A DNA stretch of 19,997 nucleotides, taken from UHGV virus genome UHGV-0061455; one strand, given 5' to 3'. A program made the position numbers and the translations under genes. The notes beneath the pieces were generated by a model, which was not told where the DNA came from, did not search any database, and saw only the letters and a program-made list of their open reading frames with translations. How positions within the stretch are numbered: the first letter of the stretch is position 1; each line of letters starts with the position of its first letter. This document shows positions 325 to 10,345 of the stretch, piece by piece. This DNA is from a virus.

Positions 325-3030
325 ATGGCCTATAGTTGGGAAGAGCATCTGTATCCCGCAGGGACTACTAGCATCTCAGTGAATATTCAGTACTTAGACC
401 GCTCTTATATCTACCTGTACGTAGATAACGAGGAAGTGCTTGACTATACTTGGGAGAGCGACGTGCGCATCCGGTTGGATGCTGCACTTACTAAAGAGAG
501 TAAGGTACTAATTGTACGCCGTACAGCGGCGCATTACCTGTACATTAACTTCAAGTCAGGTGCTCCGTTTATCTCTGAGAACTTAGATACTCAGAATACT
601 CAGTTCCTGCACCTAGCTCAGGAGATGACGGAAGGTCGTAGTATCGAGGGATTCTACGGCGATATTAATATGAACGGCTTCCGCATCATTAATCTGGCAG
701 CAGGAGAAGAGGCTACAGACGCGATTAATAAGGCGCAGTTAGATGAAGTAGATTCTAAGGTAAAGGCGTTGGAGGGTACCTTTATAGGTCATACTAATAG
801 TTACCCATGGTACACCGTTATTGTGTCTCCTACGAAGATCATTGCACCTCCTTACTCGTTTACTAAAGCAGCTGTATATTTGAACGGAGTATGTCAAACT
901 CCGGGATATTCTTACAGTGTAGATAATAATACCATTACCTTAGCAGAGGAAGTTCCCGCGGGAACGCACGTGTTTGTGCGATTAGGGGAGGATATACTGG
1001 ATGCTACCTACGTCACAGTAGTAACTTACGCAGACCTTATTCAGCGTCTTACAGACCCAGACGGTGCAGTTAACAGTCCTGAACTTCAGGTGGCTAGGTG
1101 GAGAGACAACGGTGATGTTCGAGGCTGGGGAGCTAAGGTAGATGGAGGTGCAAACGACTCAGGCGCATTTAATGCGGTAGCCGGTGCACCTGCTCACGTA
1201 CCTAACGGTACATCCCGATGCAGTCCTGGTGTGTTTTCTATAGCTGGGTTGACCGGAGAAGTGAACTCAAAGCTTAAGCAGGTTGCTCCTGCAGGTAACT
1301 TCCTATCCTTCCGTCAGCCTGACGGGGGACGTATCGCTAACCTAGATATTGAATCTAATAAGGGAGGGGTAGTATCTGCACAAGGTCACCAGATTGACGT
1401 TCAGGATGGACGTAACGTTACTCTGGAAAACCTTAACTTTAAAGAAGCAGAGGGAACTGGATTTTCCATCATCACTTACAGTAATACTCTTCCATACCAA
1501 GAAGGGTTCATTGTAAAGGGTATTCGTGGGAAATACAATACATCTGTAGCAAACGCCGATGCAGGCTGTGTACTGTTAGACCGTAATCGTAAGTCGCTGG
1601 TTGACGGCGTTATTGCAACAGGTTACCCTCAGTTCGGAGCAGTAGAGCTTAAGAGTGATGCTAAGTATAACATCACGTCTAATATTATTGGAGATAACTG
1701 TGAGAGTACAGTTTACTTAGGTACTGAAACAGAGGCTACACCTAACGCCAATATCATCAGTAACATTATCTCAAGCAAGCCTGGGTTCAGCGCTGTAGAG
1801 GTAGGCAGAGGCCGCCACAATTTAATGTCTAATGTGCTGGCTGACTATACAGAGTCTACAGCAACATCAGCACACGGTGTGACTATGACGGGCGAGTCTA
1901 ATGTTGCTGATAACATACTCATGATGGGAAGTACCGGGGTTAACTCCATAGGCGGCGCGCAGGCGGCATATAATGCAAGATTCCGTGGCACTGCAAGGAA
2001 CAACTATGCCTCTATCTTCCCACACTACACCGCAACGGGGGTCGTGACTTTCGAGGGAGGTACTGCACGTAACTTTGTAGAGATTAAACATCCCGGCTCC
2101 CGCTCTAGTATTTTCGCGCAGGCTTCCACAATTACAGATAAGGCGACAATTACCGGGGACGTTAACAGTAACGTAGTGCATGCACCGGCACTTGGTCAGT
2201 ACTTCGGCACCATGTCAGGAACCTTCGATTGGCGTATCAAGGATGTTACTATCCCATCTGGAGTATTTGTTACAGCCGACCGATTCAGGTTCATATGCGA
2301 TGGCGCAGTTTCCATGGCTGTTGGCGGGGGGACTACATCTCAGTTGAAACTGTTCAACTCAGACGGTACGGCACGGACACTATCACTGAATCAAAACCAG
2401 TCTATCAGGTTGGATATAGGTTCAGGGAACTACCTGCAGTTCAGCTCTAATGTCCTGACACCTAGTCAGACTAACGCTTACTCATTAGGTAATGCGTCAA
2501 AGGCTTGGGCAGGAGGCACAACGCAGACCGCGTTTACAGTTCTATCAGATGAACGTGCTAAGAGCAAACCCTTGACGCTTGCTCGAGGCTCGTTAGCCGA
2601 TATTATAACTTCAGACGGGGAGCAGGTATACTCGTCTGACGCGGTTCTAGATGCTTGGGCTGAAGTAGATTTGGTACAGTACCAGCTGCTAGATCGTATT
2701 GAAGCGAAAGGTGAAGAAGGTGCCCGCTGGCATTTTGGTGTTCTCGCCCAACGTGCAGTTGAGGCATTCTCCCGTCATGGTCTGGACGCCCATCGGTTTG
2801 CTTTCCTGTGCTATGATGAGTGGGACGACCAGTACGGTAAAGTTCAGGTTGGTGATGGAGAGTATATAGAGGTACTGGAAACACCAGCAGGTAACCGTTA
2901 CGGCATCCGCTACGAAGAGGCTTTGATTCTTGAAGCAGCACTTCAACGTCGTAACTATAGCAGGTTGGTTGATAGTTTCAATAAGTTGTCATCTCGTATT
3001 GATGCTATTGAGGCGGTCTGCGCACCTTAA
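325..3030 (+). CDS. Tail fibre/tailspike: T7 gp17-like N-terminal anchor, central beta-helix (pectate-lyase-like, putative depolymerase), C-terminal intramolecular chaperone (peptidase S74-like) domain
   Basis: 901-aa ORF; GGAG RBS 7 nt upstream of ATG 325. N-terminal ~150 aa resemble the T7 gp17 adaptor domain. Central region shows repetitive Asn/Gly/Ser-rich pattern typical of right-handed beta-helices. Motif SDERAK near aa 741 resembles the auto-cleavage site of endosialidase-type chaperone domains. Confidence 0.85.
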   Translation: MAYSWEEHLYPAGTTSISVNIQYLDRSYIYLYVDNEEVLDYTWESDVRIRLDAALTKESKVLIVRRTAAHYLYINFKSGAPFISENLDTQNTQFLHLAQEMTEGRSIEGFYGDINMNGFRIINLAAGEEATDAINKAQLDEVDSKVKALEGTFIGHTNSYPWYTVIVSPTKIIAPPYSFTKAAVYLNGVCQTPGYSYSVDNNTITLAEEVPAGTHVFVRLGEDILDATYVTVVTYADLIQRLTDPDGAVNSPELQVARWRDNGDVRGWGAKVDGGANDSGAFNAVAGAPAHVPNGTSRCSPGVFSIAGLTGEVNSKLKQVAPAGNFLSFRQPDGGRIANLDIESNKGGVVSAQGHQIDVQDGRNVTLENLNFKEAEGTGFSIITYSNTLPYQEGFIVKGIRGKYNTSVANADAGCVLLDRNRKSLVDGVIATGYPQFGAVELKSDAKYNITSNIIGDNCESTVYLGTETEATPNANIISNIISSKPGFSAVEVGRGRHNLMSNVLADYTESTATSAHGVTMTGESNVADNILMMGSTGVNSIGGAQAAYNARFRGTARNNYASIFPHYTATGVVTFEGGTARNFVEIKHPGSRSSIFAQASTITDKATITGDVNSNVVHAPALGQYFGTMSGTFDWRIKDVTIPSGVFVTADRFRFICDGAVSMAVGGGTTSQLKLFNSDGTARTLSLNQNQSIRLDIGSGNYLQFSSNVLTPSQTNAYSLGNASKAWAGGTTQTAFTVLSDERAKSKPLTLARGSLADIITSDGEQVYSSDAVLDAWAEVDLVQYQLLDRIEAKGEEGARWHFGVLAQRAVEAFSRHGLDAHRFAFLCYDEWDDQYGKVQVGDGEYIEVLETPAGNRYGIRYEEALILEAALQRRNYSRLVDSFNKLSSRIDAIEAVCAP

Positions 3031-3044
3031 CTTAAGGAAACAAT

Positions 3045-3344
3045 ATGGCTAAGGCGGCTACAAAGAGTCGCCTCGCTGAACTGCATAAGATGTTCACCGA
3101 GGTGCTTATTTCAGAATTGCAGCAGGCTAAGGATGAAGAAATCCCGATGCCTGCTGCAGATAAATCAGTTATCGCTAACTTCCTTAAGAGCAATAACATC
3201 ACAGCGGATGCAGACTCTACGGAGATGCAGGACCTGCGTGATGAGTTCCAAGATGAGTTAGCAGAGAAACGTAAAGCACGGGCGTCTGAATTACTAGCGA
3301 AAGCTGGTGCAGACCCTGAAGACCCTCTAGCAGGTATTCTATAA
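3045..3344 (+). CDS. Putative terminase small subunit (DNA maturase A)
   Basis: 99-aa highly charged, helical-looking protein directly upstream of the large terminase. Assignment by size and position only. Confidence 0.4.
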   Translation: MAKAATKSRLAELHKMFTEVLISELQQAKDEEIPMPAADKSVIANFLKSNNITADADSTEMQDLRDEFQDELAEKRKARASELLAKAGADPEDPLAGIL

Positions 3345-3661
3345 TGAAGGTAAAACTTAACCCTTACCCCGTTACAGTAGATATTGTATTTAACCGGGAC
3401 GATTTCATTAAGCGCTACAAGAAGGTTCGTGGGTATTCCCCTGATATCGAAGGTTGCGGTGGGATGACTTCTTACCTATCGAGCGATGATTTGCTCATAG
3501 GGGTATTCAATTCCAAAGTGGGTACGCTTGTGCATGAACTTAATCATGCCCTGATTCACACTATGGAGTACGTAGGGTTAAGTATTACACCTCAGACATC
3601 CGAGGCGTACTGCTACTTAATGGATAGCGTGCTGGAACAGGCGCTCCCTAAACTCAAATAA
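3344..3661 (+). CDS. Hypothetical protein with HExxH zinc-metallopeptidase-like motif
   Basis: 105-aa ORF whose ATG overlaps the upstream stop (ATAATGA). Contains VHELNHALIH (HExxH plus a third His 4 residues later) and an upstream GCGG segment. Family unknown. Confidence 0.5.
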   Translation: MKVKLNPYPVTVDIVFNRDDFIKRYKKVRGYSPDIEGCGGMTSYLSSDDLLIGVFNSKVGTLVHELNHALIHTMEYVGLSITPQTSEAYCYLMDSVLEQALPKLK

Positions 3662-3672
3662 AGGAAGATACG

Positions 3673-5496
3673 GTGATTAGTCAAACTACACTGAACAGAT
3701 TGAAGCTAATATCTCAACGTACTACAGTAATGAATGACAGTCCCCGTACTATCCCCAAGGACCAGCGCGAGGAAGTGGCGCTTATGATGGCGGTAACTCT
3801 GAAGGATTTTAGAGAGTTCGCATACTTAGGTATGAAGTTCCTAGGTTTTGACCTTACAGAGATGCAGCGCGATATAGCAGACTTCATGCAGCATGGTCCG
3901 CGTAAGCGCATGGTAGCAGCACAGCGTGGTGAAGCTAAGTCTACGCTGGCTGCCCTGTACGCTGTTTGGCGGTTAATCCAGGACCAGAGTACCCGTATTC
4001 TTATTGTATCTGGTGGTGAGAAGCAGGCGTCTGAAGTAGCTACGCTTGTTATCCGTATGATTGAGACGTGGCCTTTACTATGCTACCTCAAGGCTGATAG
4101 TACCCGAGGTGATCGCACATCTTATGAAGGCTACGACGTTCACTGCGACCTTAAGCCTCTGGATAAGTCCGCTAGCATTGCGTGCGTAGGTATTACTGCG
4201 CAGCTGCAGGGTAAGCGTGCTGACCTGCTGATTCCAGATGATATCGAAACAACCAAGAACGGCCTAACGCAGACTATGCGTGAGCAGTTGCTGAACATCT
4301 CTAAAGACTTCGCCGCTATCTGTACTCATGGTGATACCTTGTACTTGGGAACACCTCAGACTAAGGATAGTATCTACAAAACCCTGCCGGGCCGTGGCTT
4401 TGAAGTTCGAGTCTGGCCTGGACGTATACCGAACGCAGAGATGCGTGAACGTTACGGAGAAACCCTAGCCCCGTATATTCAAACCCTCATCGACGCAGGG
4501 TACAAAGAGACTGGCTTCGGGTTAGACGGTACGTTAGGTGAGTGCACAGATAAAGGACGTTACAACGAAGAAGCGCTGATTGAGAAGGAACTGGACTTTG
4601 GTCCTGAAGGTTTCCAACTCCAGTACATGCTTGATACAACTATGTCCGATGCGCTGCGTACCAAGATTAAACTCTCCGATATGCTCGTGTACTCTGGTTC
4701 TCATGACTCTGCCCCAGACCGCTTAAGCTATATTGCTGATAAGCGCTACATGTTCGCAGAGGAGCATGAAGGTATCCGTGGCCAGTTACTGTACCAGCCG
4801 GCTAGCTATGGCGAGCACATGCTCCCGTACCAGCATAAGCTGATGGTAATCGACCCGGCAGGGTGCGGCGGGGATGAAGTGTCTTACGCCTGTGGCGGCG
4901 CAGCTAACTCATACATACACCTGTTCTCTGTAGGCGGCTTCCAAGGTGGCATTAGTACCGAGAACGTGGATAAGTTTATCGACATTGCTATAGAGATGGG
5001 AATCTCTGATATCTTCATCGAAAGCAACATGGGTCACGGTACAGTAGAAATGCTGTTCCAGAACCGCTTGAAGGAGCGTAGGCTTCCGGGTATCGGTGTC
5101 AGAGGCGGTTATAACACGTCTCAGAAGGAGAAGCGTATCATTGATACTATCTCCCCTGTTACGCGTCGTCATCGCTTTGTGGTGCATTCTAGGGCGCTTA
5201 CTGACGATATCCAAAGCTGTATGCAGTACAGTCGTGATAAGCGCTGGTTGTACAGTGCGTTCCAGCAGTTACAAGGAATTACCTATGACCGAGGCAGCCT
5301 TGCTAAGGATGACCGTGCAGACGCAGTGGCTATGCTTACTGCTGAACTGAACGGCTTCTTGGTAGAGGATGAGAAGGTTGTAGCGGAGAAGGAAATCAAG
5401 AAGAAGGCAATGGAGTTCCTAGCGAATCCGCTAGGGTGGACTGATGTAGATACCAGACCTAAGCGGCGAGGCACTGCATCGCGTATGAGTTACTAG
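3673..5496 (+). CDS. Terminase large subunit (T7 gp19-like)
   Basis: 607 aa; GTG start 5 nt after AAGGAAG RBS. Segments ILIVSGGEKQASE, ACVGITAQLQGKRADLLIPDDIE, LYLGTPQT and LMVIDPAGCGGDEVSYACGG align by eye with T7 gp19 ATPase and nuclease motifs. Confidence 0.9.
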   Translation: MISQTTLNRLKLISQRTTVMNDSPRTIPKDQREEVALMMAVTLKDFREFAYLGMKFLGFDLTEMQRDIADFMQHGPRKRMVAAQRGEAKSTLAALYAVWRLIQDQSTRILIVSGGEKQASEVATLVIRMIETWPLLCYLKADSTRGDRTSYEGYDVHCDLKPLDKSASIACVGITAQLQGKRADLLIPDDIETTKNGLTQTMREQLLNISKDFAAICTHGDTLYLGTPQTKDSIYKTLPGRGFEVRVWPGRIPNAEMRERYGETLAPYIQTLIDAGYKETGFGLDGTLGECTDKGRYNEEALIEKELDFGPEGFQLQYMLDTTMSDALRTKIKLSDMLVYSGSHDSAPDRLSYIADKRYMFAEEHEGIRGQLLYQPASYGEHMLPYQHKLMVIDPAGCGGDEVSYACGGAANSYIHLFSVGGFQGGISTENVDKFIDIAIEMGISDIFIESNMGHGTVEMLFQNRLKERRLPGIGVRGGYNTSQKEKRIIDTISPVTRRHRFVVHSRALTDDIQSCMQYSRDKRWLYSAFQQLQGITYDRGSLAKDDRADAVAMLTAELNGFLVEDEKVVAEKEIKKKAMEFLANPLGWTDVDTRPKRRGTASRMSY

Positions 5497-5910: not shown

Positions 5911-6093
5911 ATGGCAGCAGCAAAAGCAACTCAGGCGCAGTTACAGGAACCTCTGCGCACAACTAACATCGTAGGCAAGGACTTGTACCAACTGCTTACT
6001 CAGCCTCAAGGCAAGGAGCAGGTAGGTCCGTCTATTGATGCGCTTATCTCGGCCCTGGAAGCCGCTGTAGCAGCAGTTAAAGCAGCAGCCTAA
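5911..6093 (+). CDS. Hypothetical small protein (Ala/Gln-rich, helical)
   Basis: ATG 5911 preceded by GGAG immediately after the upstream stop. The longer track ORF from 5812 overlaps the preceding gene and lacks an RBS, so the internal start is preferred. Confidence 0.4.
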   Translation: MAAAKATQAQLQEPLRTTNIVGKDLYQLLTQPQGKEQVGPSIDALISALEAAVAAVKAAA

Positions 6094-6506
6094 TGAAGTC
6101 ATTGGTCGCTGGGTTAATCCTCGCTACGGCTCTTACAGGCTGTTCAGCGACCTCTGCATTGACAGGTCTCATTGGCTCTAAGCCAGACCTGTCTGTGCAA
6201 GCTGGCGCAGAGAACACTAAACAAACTGTAGGCCTTAACGGCAAGTCCGACTCCAGCACGGACAACGAGACAACTATTAAAGATTCTAACGTAGGCACGC
6301 TGGATACTTCAACTAAGAAGCAGTCCAGTTCAGTTACTACTGGAACCATTAACACGGAGCGGGTACAGGTCGTAAACAATGACGGTACTAGCATAATTCT
6401 GGCAGGACTGGCAGGTGCAGCGGTTCCAATCGCAATCCTCATCATCGTCCTGTTGTTCCGCAAGCTCGGAAGAACTAAGGACGGGATCGATGAGTCTACC
6501 AATTAA
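6093..6506 (+). CDS. Putative unimolecular spanin (outer-membrane lipoprotein signal plus C-terminal transmembrane anchor)
   Basis: N-terminus MKSLVAGLILATALTGC has a signal peptide with LTGC lipobox; Ser/Thr-rich middle; C-terminal hydrophobic helix IILAGLAGAAVPIAILIIVLLF followed by basic residues. This topology matches T1 gp11-type u-spanins. ATG overlaps the upstream stop (TAATG). Confidence 0.55.
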   Translation: MKSLVAGLILATALTGCSATSALTGLIGSKPDLSVQAGAENTKQTVGLNGKSDSSTDNETTIKDSNVGTLDTSTKKQSSSVTTGTINTERVQVVNNDGTSIILAGLAGAAVPIAILIIVLLFRKLGRTKDGIDESTN

Positions 6507-6738
6507 CGGGGAAACTATCACCCGTGTAGGAACAAACGTATCTGTCGCTACTATGGGTGGCGGATGGATGGCAGACGTAATGTCTTGGAACTGGGGTACA
6601 ATCTCGTTCATCGTCGGTACGGTAATGGCTGTACTGACCTTCGCATGGAACGCGTACTACAAGCACAAAGAGTATAAGCTCAAGGAAAAGGCACTGGAGA
6701 AGGGGCTGGCATACTATAAGCATAAGCAACAAGGTTAA
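6490..6738 (+). CDS. Putative holin (possibly pinholin-like)
   Basis: 82 aa from ATG 6490. One strongly hydrophobic helix GTISFIVGTVMAVLTFAW preceded by a weaker hydrophobic segment, then a highly charged Lys-rich C-terminus. Sits immediately upstream of the endolysin. Confidence 0.45.
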   Translation: MSLPINGETITRVGTNVSVATMGGGWMADVMSWNWGTISFIVGTVMAVLTFAWNAYYKHKEYKLKEKALEKGLAYYKHKQQG

Positions 6739-6784
6739 AGCTGCACTGGCAGGGGCAACCCTGCTGGGCGGCAGTATCACTGCT

Positions 6785-7267: not shown

Positions 7268-9013
7268 ATGACCCTAGTAAAGTTAGTTGAAGTAGAACTG
7301 GATACCTTGCACGTAGACCACTCTGGGTTAGTGCTTAATACGTACTTGAATGACAACGGGTACAACCTGCGTCAATGGGTAGACTCTGATGCAGCAGATG
7401 CACGAGAAGGAATGCAAGCTGCTATTGACTATATTGAGTCAGTTGGTGGAGGTACGTTAATTATCCCAGATGGTACTTGGATTCTTAACAGTATCAGTAC
7501 TGGCCCAGTGTCCGGGCACAGTGGACTCATTCAGCTTAAGAACAATGTAAGCATTAAGCTGGACGGTGTAGTTAAAGTAGGCCCTGCCTTAGCTAATAGT
7601 TCCTTCCAGGTCTTCGTCGGCTTCACTGATGCCAATCCAGCTAACTCTGGTAACTTGGACAACTGTCACATCTTTGGTGAAGGTAGCATTGACTTTGGAG
7701 GTTATGATTTTGCTGACTCAGGTCACTTGCGCAATGGTATCGCATTTGGTAAGGGGTATAACTGTTCAGTAGATGGCATTACGTTCATTAACGGTGACAT
7801 TACATGGGCTATAACACTTGGGTGGAACGGATATGGTTCAGACTCTTATGTCCGCAACTGCCGCTTCATTAACCTCATCCAAAGTAACGTGAACCGCGAC
7901 CATAGTACAGTGTACGTTAACTGCCCGTTCAGTGGGGTCACTGACTGCACCTTCCGCGCAAGCTCTGCGCGTGCCAAGGTAATAGCATGCACTGTGGAGT
8001 TACATCAACACGACACCTACTACCGCAATAGCAGCATCTCAGGATATACGCGTGGGTGCTATGTAGCGCTGCATGGTTCTGAGTCTGTTGGTGCAGGTAC
8101 GTACCTGTATAATGCCGAAGTCTCTGGGGTCATCGGAGATATCTCTGGTCAGGCCGTTATATTAGCTGCAGGCCCAGACGCTATAGCTACTACGCACATT
8201 CATGGCCTTACGGTATCTAACTGCCGGTTCACTGCTGGGAACTACCCGGGCATGTGCAGCTTCATTGACTTCTTCCAAGATGGTAACTCTGACTCAAGTC
8301 AGTACCTTATCAATCACGTTACGGTTAAGGGGTGCAGCTTCATCGTAGACCGCAGCCGTTCTCTTAGTGCAGCCATTACCCTGAACGGGAGTATTCAAGG
8401 TATCACCTTCCAGGATAACTTCTTCGATGTTAAGCAGGCTATGGTATCGGAACTCCCTAGCGGACGCACTGTGCAGTTAGAGCGCTTTAACTGGGATGCT
8501 AGCAATATCATCGGCGGCGATAACACTGGTACTCGTACTGGCCTGAACCTGTTTGAGACTCGGCGAGTATCCAGTATGTTGCGCTGTAACATTCAACTGC
8601 ATATGCGTCAGCCTAGTGTGGACCTGTACAGCTTTATGTACTTCCGTCCCGGTATCTCCTTCAGTGAGTGTACTATAGAGGTTCTACCTTACAACTGGGG
8701 TACTAGTTCAGGTAATGCACTGTTCTTTGAAGAGGGTGGCGTTCCTCCCCTGAACGTACATTGCAGCTTCCCTAAACAAGTATCTGTAACTCTCGCATCT
8801 GGTTCGAACGTGCAACGCGCTACGGTATCAGGTAACTACGCTTGGGTTGCCCGTGCAGACGCTCTGGATAGACGTGGTATTTCAGGTCAGTTCGATGCCC
8901 CTGCTAGTTACGCAGGTAGCAGCAACGGTCAGTTAACAGGCTTAGGTTGGCAGCTTGATGGGCTTCAACATACGTATGACCACAACGTGCTTCTTACAGG
9001 GCGCAGTAACTAA
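7268..9013 (+). CDS. Second tailspike, beta-helix polysaccharide depolymerase (pectate-lyase-3-like), no T7-type anchor domain
   Basis: 581 aa; AAGGA RBS. N-terminus DAREGMQAAIDYIESVGGGTLIIPDGTWIL resembles the start of pectate-lyase-fold phage depolymerases. Internal repeats (NCHIFGEGSIDF, NCRFINLIQSN, VTDCTFRAS, SNCRFTAG, KGCSFIVD) are typical beta-helix rungs. Confidence 0.75.
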   Translation: MTLVKLVEVELDTLHVDHSGLVLNTYLNDNGYNLRQWVDSDAADAREGMQAAIDYIESVGGGTLIIPDGTWILNSISTGPVSGHSGLIQLKNNVSIKLDGVVKVGPALANSSFQVFVGFTDANPANSGNLDNCHIFGEGSIDFGGYDFADSGHLRNGIAFGKGYNCSVDGITFINGDITWAITLGWNGYGSDSYVRNCRFINLIQSNVNRDHSTVYVNCPFSGVTDCTFRASSARAKVIACTVELHQHDTYYRNSSISGYTRGCYVALHGSESVGAGTYLYNAEVSGVIGDISGQAVILAAGPDAIATTHIHGLTVSNCRFTAGNYPGMCSFIDFFQDGNSDSSQYLINHVTVKGCSFIVDRSRSLSAAITLNGSIQGITFQDNFFDVKQAMVSELPSGRTVQLERFNWDASNIIGGDNTGTRTGLNLFETRRVSSMLRCNIQLHMRQPSVDLYSFMYFRPGISFSECTIEVLPYNWGTSSGNALFFEEGGVPPLNVHCSFPKQVSVTLASGSNVQRATVSGNYAWVARADALDRRGISGQFDAPASYAGSSNGQLTGLGWQLDGLQHTYDHNVLLTGRSN

Positions 9014-9466
9014 GTAATAAACCTGTGGGTGCCTGAGGGTGCCCTGGGATTTCCTGGGATTGCACGTGTAAACGTACACCTAGAAAATATTATACTCACG
9101 CGAGGCCCTCCCTCACCCGACCAAGGCGTCAATCCCCCCATGGGGTAGGCCTCTGGGAATTCACAGGGTGGGGTAGTGGGAGAGGGTGCTAATCCCTCTG
9201 CGTATACTGTGTGCTGCGCTAGACGCTCTGTATCGCTCTGTATCGCTCTGTATCGCTCTGTGAGTCTATAGCAGTACCTAAGGGACACTTCGTGTCTCTA
9301 CGCTGTACAAGGCAAGCCTCTGTGCTTCTCTGTGCTCTCTCTTATGAGGGCAGGAGGGGGCGCATGCTTGCCTATTTTTATGCACGCTGTGCAGTACTGT
9401 ATGCCGCTGCTATACCTCTGTGTATGCGCAGTAGCTTACCTCTTTTGCCTCTAGGCTATGCAATGC
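9014..9466. other. Non-coding genome-terminus or terminal-repeat-like region
   Basis: About 450 nt with no credible ORF between the last late gene and the first early promoter. Contains tandem short repeats, CTCTGT-type motifs, a CCCCATGGGG palindrome and C-rich/G-rich inverted arms. T7-like genomes have short repeat arrays next to their terminal repeats. Confidence 0.5.
9224..9261. repeat. Tandem repeat, about 3.8 copies of 10-bp unit CGCTCTGTAT
   Basis: Read directly: cgctctgtat cgctctgtat cgctctgtat cgctctgt. Related CTCTGTG motifs recur at about 9318-9345 and 9415. Confidence 0.9.
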
Positions 9467-9495
9467 TTGACGCAGGGTTAGCGCTGTGATATGCT
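9467..9495 (+). promoter_or_regulatory. Candidate sigma70-type early promoter P0 (TTGACG-N17-TATGCT)
   Basis: -35 TTGACG at 9467-9472, 17-nt spacer, -10 TATGCT at 9490-9495; about 100 nt upstream of the first early gene. Weaker -10 than the other promoters. Confidence 0.35.
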
Positions 9496-9601
9496 GATAG
9501 TAGTTGTAAGGTTCTTTAACAATCCGGGGAATCAACGACGCAGTGCAGCGAGTCACTACTCAACACTATATAGTAGGGGATATTGGAATACACTATGAAG
9601 G

Positions 9602-10345
9602 ATGCATACAATGCAAGAACGTAATCTTAAGAAGAGTAGTAAGCGTATAGACGGTAAGGTACGCAGTGGTTGGATAGATGTAGATACAGGGGAGTTCTTC
9701 AACACTAAAGCAGAGGCGAATGTAATGCGTAAGATGCGTAGTGATAAGAAGCCTGTAGCTAGGCGTAATGTAATAGCAGTAGCTGATGCAACGCTTAGAA
9801 TGAAGGATGTAGTGCTAGCTTGGGCATTCAGTAATGATTTCCAGCTTAAACATTACAACTTAATGAATGAGTACATGGAAGGGCGCAGTAAGGGCTATGC
9901 AGGGCTTAAGACTATGCAGCGTGCTGGTACTGTACTGGAAGCAGTTAACGTAGCTACAGCGTGGTACAAGCAGTATGACGCTAGGAAGGATAAACGCTAT
10001 CTGGATGATGCACTCTACACCAATCCTACATGGTGTGAGGATAGGGATTGGGTAGACTCTGAGCCATTGGATGAGCTTAGCTTAGAGATAAATGCATTAC
10101 TGGACTCTAGACATGCTGAGTTCTTAGCGAATGAGCCTAAACCTGAGCTTACTGCTAAGGAGTATGAGCGTAGTATACTCAGTAGGGATAAAGCTACTTA
10201 TATACACAGTAAGGGTGCTGTAACAGTGTATGAGGAGAAGCAGGAGAGTAAGAAAGGTTTAACTGAGCATCAACCTAGATGGTCACAGGATGAGTTGTTT
10301 GATTGGACGCAGCGTAACACTACACAACAATACATTAGGGGATAA
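9602..10345 (+). CDS. Early protein, function unknown
   Basis: 247-aa ORF, visibly more A+T-rich than the late genes. ATG 9611 has better RBS spacing (AAGGA 9 nt upstream) than ATG 9602, so the true start may be 9611. Confidence 0.6.
   Translation: MHTMQERNLKKSSKRIDGKVRSGWIDVDTGEFFNTKAEANVMRKMRSDKKPVARRNVIAVADATLRMKDVVLAWAFSNDFQLKHYNLMNEYMEGRSKGYAGLKTMQRAGTVLEAVNVATAWYKQYDARKDKRYLDDALYTNPTWCEDRDWVDSEPLDELSLEINALLDSRHAEFLANEPKPELTAKEYERSILSRDKATYIHSKGAVTVYEEKQESKKGLTEHQPRWSQDELFDWTQRNTTQQYIRG

Follow-up and report, generated by a model that had tools for sequence, protein, structure and literature searches.

The small gene between the two terminase genes of the virus genome UHGV-0061455 appears, with somewhat better than even confidence, to be a mobile accessory cassette of one gene whose product, made late along with the terminase, is a minimal metallopeptidase of the gluzincin type that stands alone and likely serves as a conflict effector. 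The analysis was centred on the window, that is the whole stretch of 19,997 nucleotides, which comes from a phage of the Autographiviridae, subfamily Slopekvirinae. In GenBank its nearest relatives are ECO104 4-5-2, vB_EcoP_PAS7, P64441 and Enterobacter phage EhYP. An original prediction, made by reading the DNA without database searches, had placed a 105-residue open reading frame with an HELNH motif at 3344-3661, between the small and the large terminase genes, and the Pfam matches of the two flanking genes (PF11123 and PF22530) confirmed this arrangement. The features of the locus, numbered from the first letter of the window, are the following.

3045..3344, + strand: small terminase gene (terS), upstream in the same operon; PF11123 DNA_Packaging_2, E=9e-19, and phrog_891
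3342..3346, + strand: TAATG, in which the terS stop and the start of the 105-residue ORF overlap by one base
3344..3661, + strand: the 105-residue ORF, a phrog_1365 member; predicted minimal zincin-type metallopeptidase
3346..3659, + strand: cassette of ~314 bp, carried by the window phage and by some uncultured relatives and missing from PAS7, ECO104 4-5-2 and EhYP (alignment and junction strings)
3533..3547, + strand: codons 64-68, HELNH (H64-E65-L66-N67-H68), in predicted helix 59-76; proposed two Zn ligands and general-base Glu
3557..3559, + strand: codon of H72, the 'third His' of the original prediction; variable across homologues
3602..3616, + strand: codons of E87-A-Y-C-Y91, with which predicted helix 86-103 starts; E87 is proposed as a third, gluzincin-type Zn ligand
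3659..3675, + strand: ORF stop TAA, then the ribosome-binding site AAGGAAG, then the GTG start of terL (sequence and junction comparison)
3673..5496, + strand: large terminase gene (terL) of the T7 type, downstream in the same operon; PF22530, E=2e-30, and phrog_38, E=3e-112

The ORF begins with ATG and its product, which includes ...TLVHELNHALIH..., has a mass of 11.8 kDa, a pI of 6.3 and no hydrophobic segment. The motif reads V-H64-E-L-N-H68-A-L-I-H72. The TAATG overlap, which was also found in the contigs L012 and L013, implies by its sequence that translation of the ORF would be coupled to that of terS. No antisense ORF of at least 40 residues overlaps 3344..3661, and neither a sigma-70-like promoter on the + strand nor an intrinsic terminator was found within 2800-3900. 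The possibility was considered that the gene belongs to a transposon-like or RNA element. This was rejected, as no inverted repeats flank the ORF and no Rfam families or tRNAs were found in the window. The only repeat of this kind lies inside the ORF, a 15-nt inverted pair with arms at 3350-3364 and 3574-3588 that are 93% complementary and 209 nt apart, and it probably arose by chance.

Searches of protein families returned one clear match. The 105-residue protein matched phrog_1365 (PHROGs v4, 'unknown function') with E=1.3e-23, residues 1-105 aligning with positions 6-117 of the 127-position profile, and 54 of 54 divergent homologues matched the same entry. Pfam gave only a sub-threshold match to DUF4344 (E=0.06), NCBIfam gave no match, the PADLOC defence-system models returned 0 families at E<=10, and searches of PDB sequences with both the single protein and the profile returned nothing significant. 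The earlier statement that the protein could not be placed in a known family was thus upheld, since the PHROG that it matches has no assigned function. An exhaustive profile search of 1.84 billion cluster representatives retrieved 1,614 clusters, counted at 50% identity, with E<=1e-3, nearly all of them proteins that stand alone and have 100-140 residues; the median length of the family was 117.5 residues among 200 retrieved homologues.

Phage homologues in GenBank with less than 60% identity were found in N4-like Gamaleyavirus, Ackermannviridae (Det7 gp68), Guernseyvirinae phiEap-2, Pectobacterium phage Horatius and many P22-like phages. The family is carried by T7-like, N4-like, Vi1-like, Jersey-like and P22-like phages; in the last of these its member lies between sieA and mnt and is the ORF called 'hkcC-like'. 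A gene of plasmid leading regions was rejected because only 12 plasmid matches were obtained, mostly from phage-plasmids or megaplasmid prophages. Species-representative bacterial genomes gave no confirmed matches when scanned with two sub-clade patterns, which set the reach of that scan. The sub-clade formed by L044, L076, L079, L068 and ~20 similar viral contigs has longer homologues of ~170-180 residues with a Lys-rich N-terminal extension, which score 54-63 bits against the family HMM. The L044-type members have a fixed gene order of a 357-residue gene, a 64-residue gene, the zincin, a PhoH-like gene and the large terminase.

Conservation was examined across 54 representatives with 23-47% identity to the query. 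Only H64, E65, H68, E87 and Y91 are invariant, while Y8, G40, G53 and F55 are nearly so. The HExxH motif is not a chance occurrence, as it was present in 199 of the 200 retrieved homologues and the dN/dS of the gene against its orthologues was 0.09-0.14, values that also show the gene to be under purifying selection. The longer pattern HExxH-x17-20-E-x-hydrophobic-x-[YFW] was found in 186 of the 200, with a spacing of 18 in 155. The original prediction had described the motif as HExxH plus a third His. This part did not survive the comparison, because the position of H72 is His in 18 of 199 homologues and W or E in close ones. The conserved third candidate ligand is instead E87, 18 residues past H68, followed one helical turn on by the invariant Y91. 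The five residues H, E, H, E and Y are kept in P22-like, Det7, phiEap-2, ECBP1 and metagenomic homologues.

An AlphaFold2 model, calculated from a 14-sequence alignment, had a mean pLDDT of 94.6 and a pTM of 0.86. Strands were predicted at residues 2-4, 11-15, 40-44 and 49-54 and helices at 18-29, 59-76 and 86-103. The HExxH motif lies within helix 59-76, on an alpha-helix as in zincins of the Peptidase MA clan; E87 stands at the start of helix 86-103 and Y91 one turn later. The core of the zincin MPTases has been defined as a small three-stranded sheet with an N-terminal helix, the HExxH helix and a second C-terminal helix bearing a Glu ligand (Iyer et al. 2017, PMC5512222). The model has this core topology, and the 105-residue protein is predicted to be a bare zincin core. 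The invariance of E87 and its place at the start of the second helix make it a candidate third ligand of the gluzincin type. The best matches in a viral structure library (TM 0.73-0.90, E down to 1e-9) were uncharacterised phage proteins of ~100-150 residues, and lower matches were annotated as PolyVal metallopeptidase (BFVD), SprT-like, IrrE and metalloprotease. The conserved HExxH and the predicted fold together bear out the earlier description of a minimal zincin-like protein. The product is quite probably an active zincin peptidase, with both metal binding and proteolysis as predicted properties.

Soluble stand-alone peptidase scaffolds with HExxH and Glu and ~105-110 residues are reportedly represented by the minigluzincins proabylysin and projannalysin, said to have been described by Lopez-Pelegrin et al. 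in 2013. The description in PMC4559962, which cites that work, agrees with this size and ligand set. They resemble the window protein in both respects and were returned by none of the sequence or fold searches. A metzincin was rejected, as HExxHxxGxxH is absent, no Gly, His or Asp is conserved after H68 and no residue between H68 and E87 is invariant. Matches to astacin-family structures in the PDB were weak, with E of about 0.5-1.2.

The MPTase domains of polyvalent proteins, including the C-terminal domain of ArdC, have the same core as the window protein, and both occur in mobile-element and conflict contexts (Iyer et al. 2017, PMC5512222). However, the former are built into giant multidomain proteins, whose processing in cis is their main proposed role (PMC5512222), whereas the window protein is a 105-residue stand-alone product with no fusions and no Pfam match to that family. 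Membership of this group was rejected; the longer homologues likewise have no recognisable fused domain. P22 hkcC, HK620 hkcC-like, ST64T Orf-129 and phage L Orf129 belong to the same sequence family as the window protein. All five of H, E, H, E and Y are retained in the P22-like homologue, a small stand-alone ORF in a moron, but it is only 25-33% identical to the window protein and occupies the 'ant moron' site instead of lying between terminase genes. Membership of phrog_1365 supplies no mechanism because hkcC has no assigned function, the epsilon34 genome paper listing it as an unknown-function gene in the 'ant moron' (PMC2629481).

Two groups of HExxH proteases were considered as alternatives. 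An ImmA/IrrE/CapP-like (M78-type) protease would have an anti-repressor role, cutting an XRE-type repressor or regulator that belongs, for instance, to a resident prophage or to an operon of host defence. This explanation is unlikely, as proteins of peptidase family M78 are larger, about 170-280 residues, and have a cognate XRE-type repressor encoded alongside, whereas no profile match to them and no adjacent XRE/HTH repressor partner were found for the window protein.

A SprT/Wss1/Spartan-like protease, removing proteins stuck or cross-linked to DNA and so clearing the genome for replication and packaging, is slightly less probable again. Such a protease would explain a site beside terminase or replication genes. 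A terminase lies within 1-6 genes of the family gene in Slopekvirinae, four other Autographiviridae contigs, the L044 group, L088 and L016, and the gene is placed in the replication module in phiEap-2, L014 and L086. The SprT-like / WLM / Spartan group (PF10263) likewise consists of a small HExxH zincin domain, and 4 of 54 family members matched the Pfam SprT-like entry (best E=4e-6). However, these matches were confined to the 16-residue HExxH helix, hhalign of the family profile against E. coli SprT/YggI gave a probability of 16% over 13 columns, and the window protein itself gave no match to PF10263. The third ligand of SprT-like proteins is a His, whereas the candidate in this family is a Glu and no third His is conserved; the family also lacks a Zn ribbon and a DNA-binding module, and the pI of 6.3 counts in the same direction. 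SprT-like membership was rejected on these grounds. Furthermore, contig L089 encodes both a phrog_1365 member (4426-4746) and, seven genes downstream, a true SprT-like gene (6313-6741, 142 residues), and the two are therefore distinct. These two small zincins co-exist and are presumably not redundant. The proximity to terminase genes is itself not an established enrichment: six Autographiviridae loci have a T7-type terL at a distance of 1-6 genes and a few more loci have other terminases nearby, which represents few independent lineages and is not clearly above chance.

The genomic context of the family was surveyed at 82 loci, which were reduced to 34 non-redundant family genes, with neighbours taken within four genes on either side. 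No conserved partner gene or operon was found, the 264 neighbours falling into 218 clusters, and for 133 neighbours the Pfam and PHROG annotations were mixed, with PhoH, terminases, Rz/LysC, integrase, HNH and helicases among them. The ORF calls of the survey were rough and noisy, and missed an Acb2/Tad1 gene that is present in database gene calls. In the database calls the family gene lies directly after an Acb2/Tad1-hairpin gene in one context and is clustered with a Tad2-like gene in one. It adjoins a Lar-like gene in one context and sieA in P22-like phages. Further contexts were a replication or nucleotide-metabolism cluster, a position between an HTH_17 gene and an integrase, and arrays of small early ORFs. 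The anti-defence factor proposed by the original prediction is possible, although the neighbourhoods that bear on it (Acb2/Tad1, Tad2, Lar and sieA) are few and anecdotal. In two unrelated phage contigs (L087:3468-9373 and L017:7719-8513) the family gene lies a few genes from a Peptidase_C26 / GATase / COOH-NH2_lig / Amidoligase_2 cluster, a predicted phage peptide-ligation system, and this proximity may be coincidence.

Comparison of the terS-terL junction among relatives showed that the gene is a discrete insertion. In PAS7, EhYP and ECO104 4-5-2 the junction is an empty spacer of 14-58 bp. TATAAT is followed directly by AAAGGAAG in non-carriers, whereas in carriers TATAAT is followed by G...AAAT and then by AAAGGAAG. 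A repeat of AAT at the two junctions leaves an uncertainty of 3 nt in the boundaries of the cassette, and its 3' end recreates the ancestral translation-initiation context of terL. Several metagenomic Slopekvirinae contigs encode at the same junction an identical protein or orthologues with 76-77% identity. Presence or absence of the cassette was independent of the similarity of the flanks: the non-carrier ECO104 is 89% identical to the window at the nucleotide level in both terS and the start of terL, and the carrier L012 is 87% identical in terS and 81% in the start of terL. This pattern in the sequences points to gain and loss or to cassette exchange. The gene also diverges faster than its neighbours, the same orthologues being 94-95% identical in terS and 87% in terL at the amino acid level. 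Since the nearest relatives lack the cassette and their terS and terL abut, the gene is read as a dispensable accessory and not as a core maturation function; that it is accessory and non-essential is very probable indeed.

These comparisons bear on two further suggestions. The original prediction had described the site as one where T7-like phages normally carry lysis or spanin genes. This is correct for T7 itself, which has 18.5/18.7 between genes 18 and 19, but not for the Slopekvirinae relatives of the window phage, which have only the empty spacer there and their lysis genes downstream of terL. A check of conservation and position in related genomes had also been proposed, and it found the motif kept across homologues, the position variable and the junction unoccupied in the nearest relatives. 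The other suggestion was a virion maturation or processing protease for structural or ejected proteins, possibly itself packaged, and the chance of this now seems small. The closest relatives lack the gene although their structural and terminase genes are orthologous, many other phages have it in early or replication clusters at a distance from the structural genes, and T7-like capsids mature without a prohead protease. Consistent with such a protease are the late expression with packaging genes in the window phage, the position of the P22 homologue after the ejection-protein genes 20 and 16 in the direction of late transcription, and the proposal that MPTase domains process polyvalent virion proteins (PMC5512222).

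In two relatives terL itself is read as more than one ORF. In the metagenomic Slopekvirinae contig L013 (4330-6933; ENA ERZ27239203), terL, just downstream of the mini-zincin orthologue, appears split into ORFs of 86 and 523 residues by a 169-residue HNH_3 endonuclease gene, an arrangement that looks homing-endonuclease or intron-like. In the Escherichia phage ECO104 4-5-2 (GenBank OR844702; L002:816-2893), terL is found as two ORFs of 190 and 407 residues with a gap of ~280 bp, which could be a sequencing frameshift or an insertion. OR844702 is the closest GenBank relative and is flagged UNVERIFIED_ORG, with no annotation. Records labelled as Listeria phage LM 4-11-1 and 4-14-1 (OR846963 and OR848465) and Salmonella phage S.Kent 1-2-1 (OR850875) have the same bit score as ECO104 4-5-2, 2897, and 91.1-91.2% identity over this Enterobacteria-type terminase region. 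The host labels of these three records look unreliable, for example through shared contamination or carry-over.

Other features of the window phage were also recorded. A 901-residue tail fibre (325-3030) begins with a T7-tail domain and ends with a Peptidase_S74 (endosialidase chaperone) domain, and a 581-residue Phage_spike_2 tailspike (7268-9013) follows the lysis cassette at the genome end. The two are receptor-binding proteins in a dual-RBP arrangement, and the tail fibre is the most variable gene among cassette carriers, with lengths of 901, 594 and 374 residues. The Rz-like spanin ORF 6093..6506 (phrog_1804) overlaps the listed holin ORF 6415..6738 (phrog_20) by ~90 nt; in the database gene calls of identical contigs the holin starts later and has 82 residues, and its true start is probably near 6490. 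The ~590 bp at 9013-9602 have no + strand ORF of at least 70 residues and one 92-residue ORF on the - strand (9010..9288), and are followed by many small + strand ORFs. The window appears to run through the genome end, from late into early genes, in a contig assembled as a circle, and positions around 9013-9602 are where the terminal repeat and the early promoters would be expected.

The poorest of the alternatives is a non-catalytic small protein, a binder or regulator with a structural or vestigial HExxH, since the protein is indeed very small, has no curated peptidase-family match and is an enzyme by prediction, but the sole residues that stay invariant across ~200 very diverse homologues are exactly those expected for catalysis and metal binding in a zincin, and inactivated zincin homologues typically lose such residues.

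As a minimal gluzincin-type metallopeptidase, the protein would be a soluble cytoplasmic zinc enzyme of ~12 kDa with the bare core beta-alpha-beta-beta-alpha-alpha. Zn2+ would be held in the gluzincin arrangement, by H64 and H68 of the active-site helix together with E87, with which the following helix starts, and the catalytic water would be activated by E65. Y91, one turn past E87, may stabilise the transition state or position a ligand. The substrate is proposed to dock as an extra strand on the edge of the sheet that precedes the active-site helix, where G53-x-F55 is conserved. The cassette would be a moron that sits precisely at the terS/terL junction but does not belong to the packaging machinery. 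Translation of its gene would be coupled to that of terS, and its transcription would be late and shared with the terminase genes. The family as a whole moves freely among accessory, early and module-boundary sites of many unrelated phages.

Because the family relocates freely and has no fixed partner gene, the protein would most likely act by itself, on a protein of the host or of a competing phage. A role in phage-host or phage-phage conflict is suggested by the dispensability of the gene, its rapid divergence, its free relocation and the occasional anti-defence neighbours. A counter-defence or host-takeover effector is a tentative assignment, and the class of target is likewise putative. 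More speculative by a small step is the idea that phrog_1365 proteins are minimal proteolytic effectors, in which a 12-kDa phage zincin would cleave and disable a specific host immune or competing-phage protein. Counter-defence genes are not usually expressed late. In the window phage and in other T7-like phages, however, production alongside the terminase might direct the protein against sensors of the late phase, such as systems triggered by terminase or portal proteins. To our knowledge, proteolysis is barely represented among catalogued phage anti-defence mechanisms. A literature search found no paper that mentions phrog_1365 and none in which a small phage zincin of the stand-alone kind has an anti-defence role.

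The zincin superfamily, the idea of phage zincins and the PHROG cluster were already known, as was hkcC as a P22 gene since at least 2008 (PMC2629481). The new element is the recognition that these ORFs form a single family, very large, whose members are minimal stand-alone zincins sharing the signature HExxH-x18-ExxxY, together with the documentation of the cassette behaviour and the link to the model phage P22. At present this amounts to a solid annotation and an experimental lead, not a surprise, and if the gene were found to have no phenotype it would simply be another moron of unknown role. If the prediction is true, these proteins would be among the smallest natural zincin peptidases and a very widespread phage accessory enzyme, with at least 1,614 clusters at 50% identity in podo-, myo- and siphoviruses, P22 hkcC included, for which neither Pfam nor NCBIfam now has a model. 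The presence of hkcC in P22 would make the idea of a proteolytic effector testable in a classic model phage. The substrate, once found, could expose proteolytic host takeover or immune evasion and could annotate thousands of 'hypothetical proteins'.
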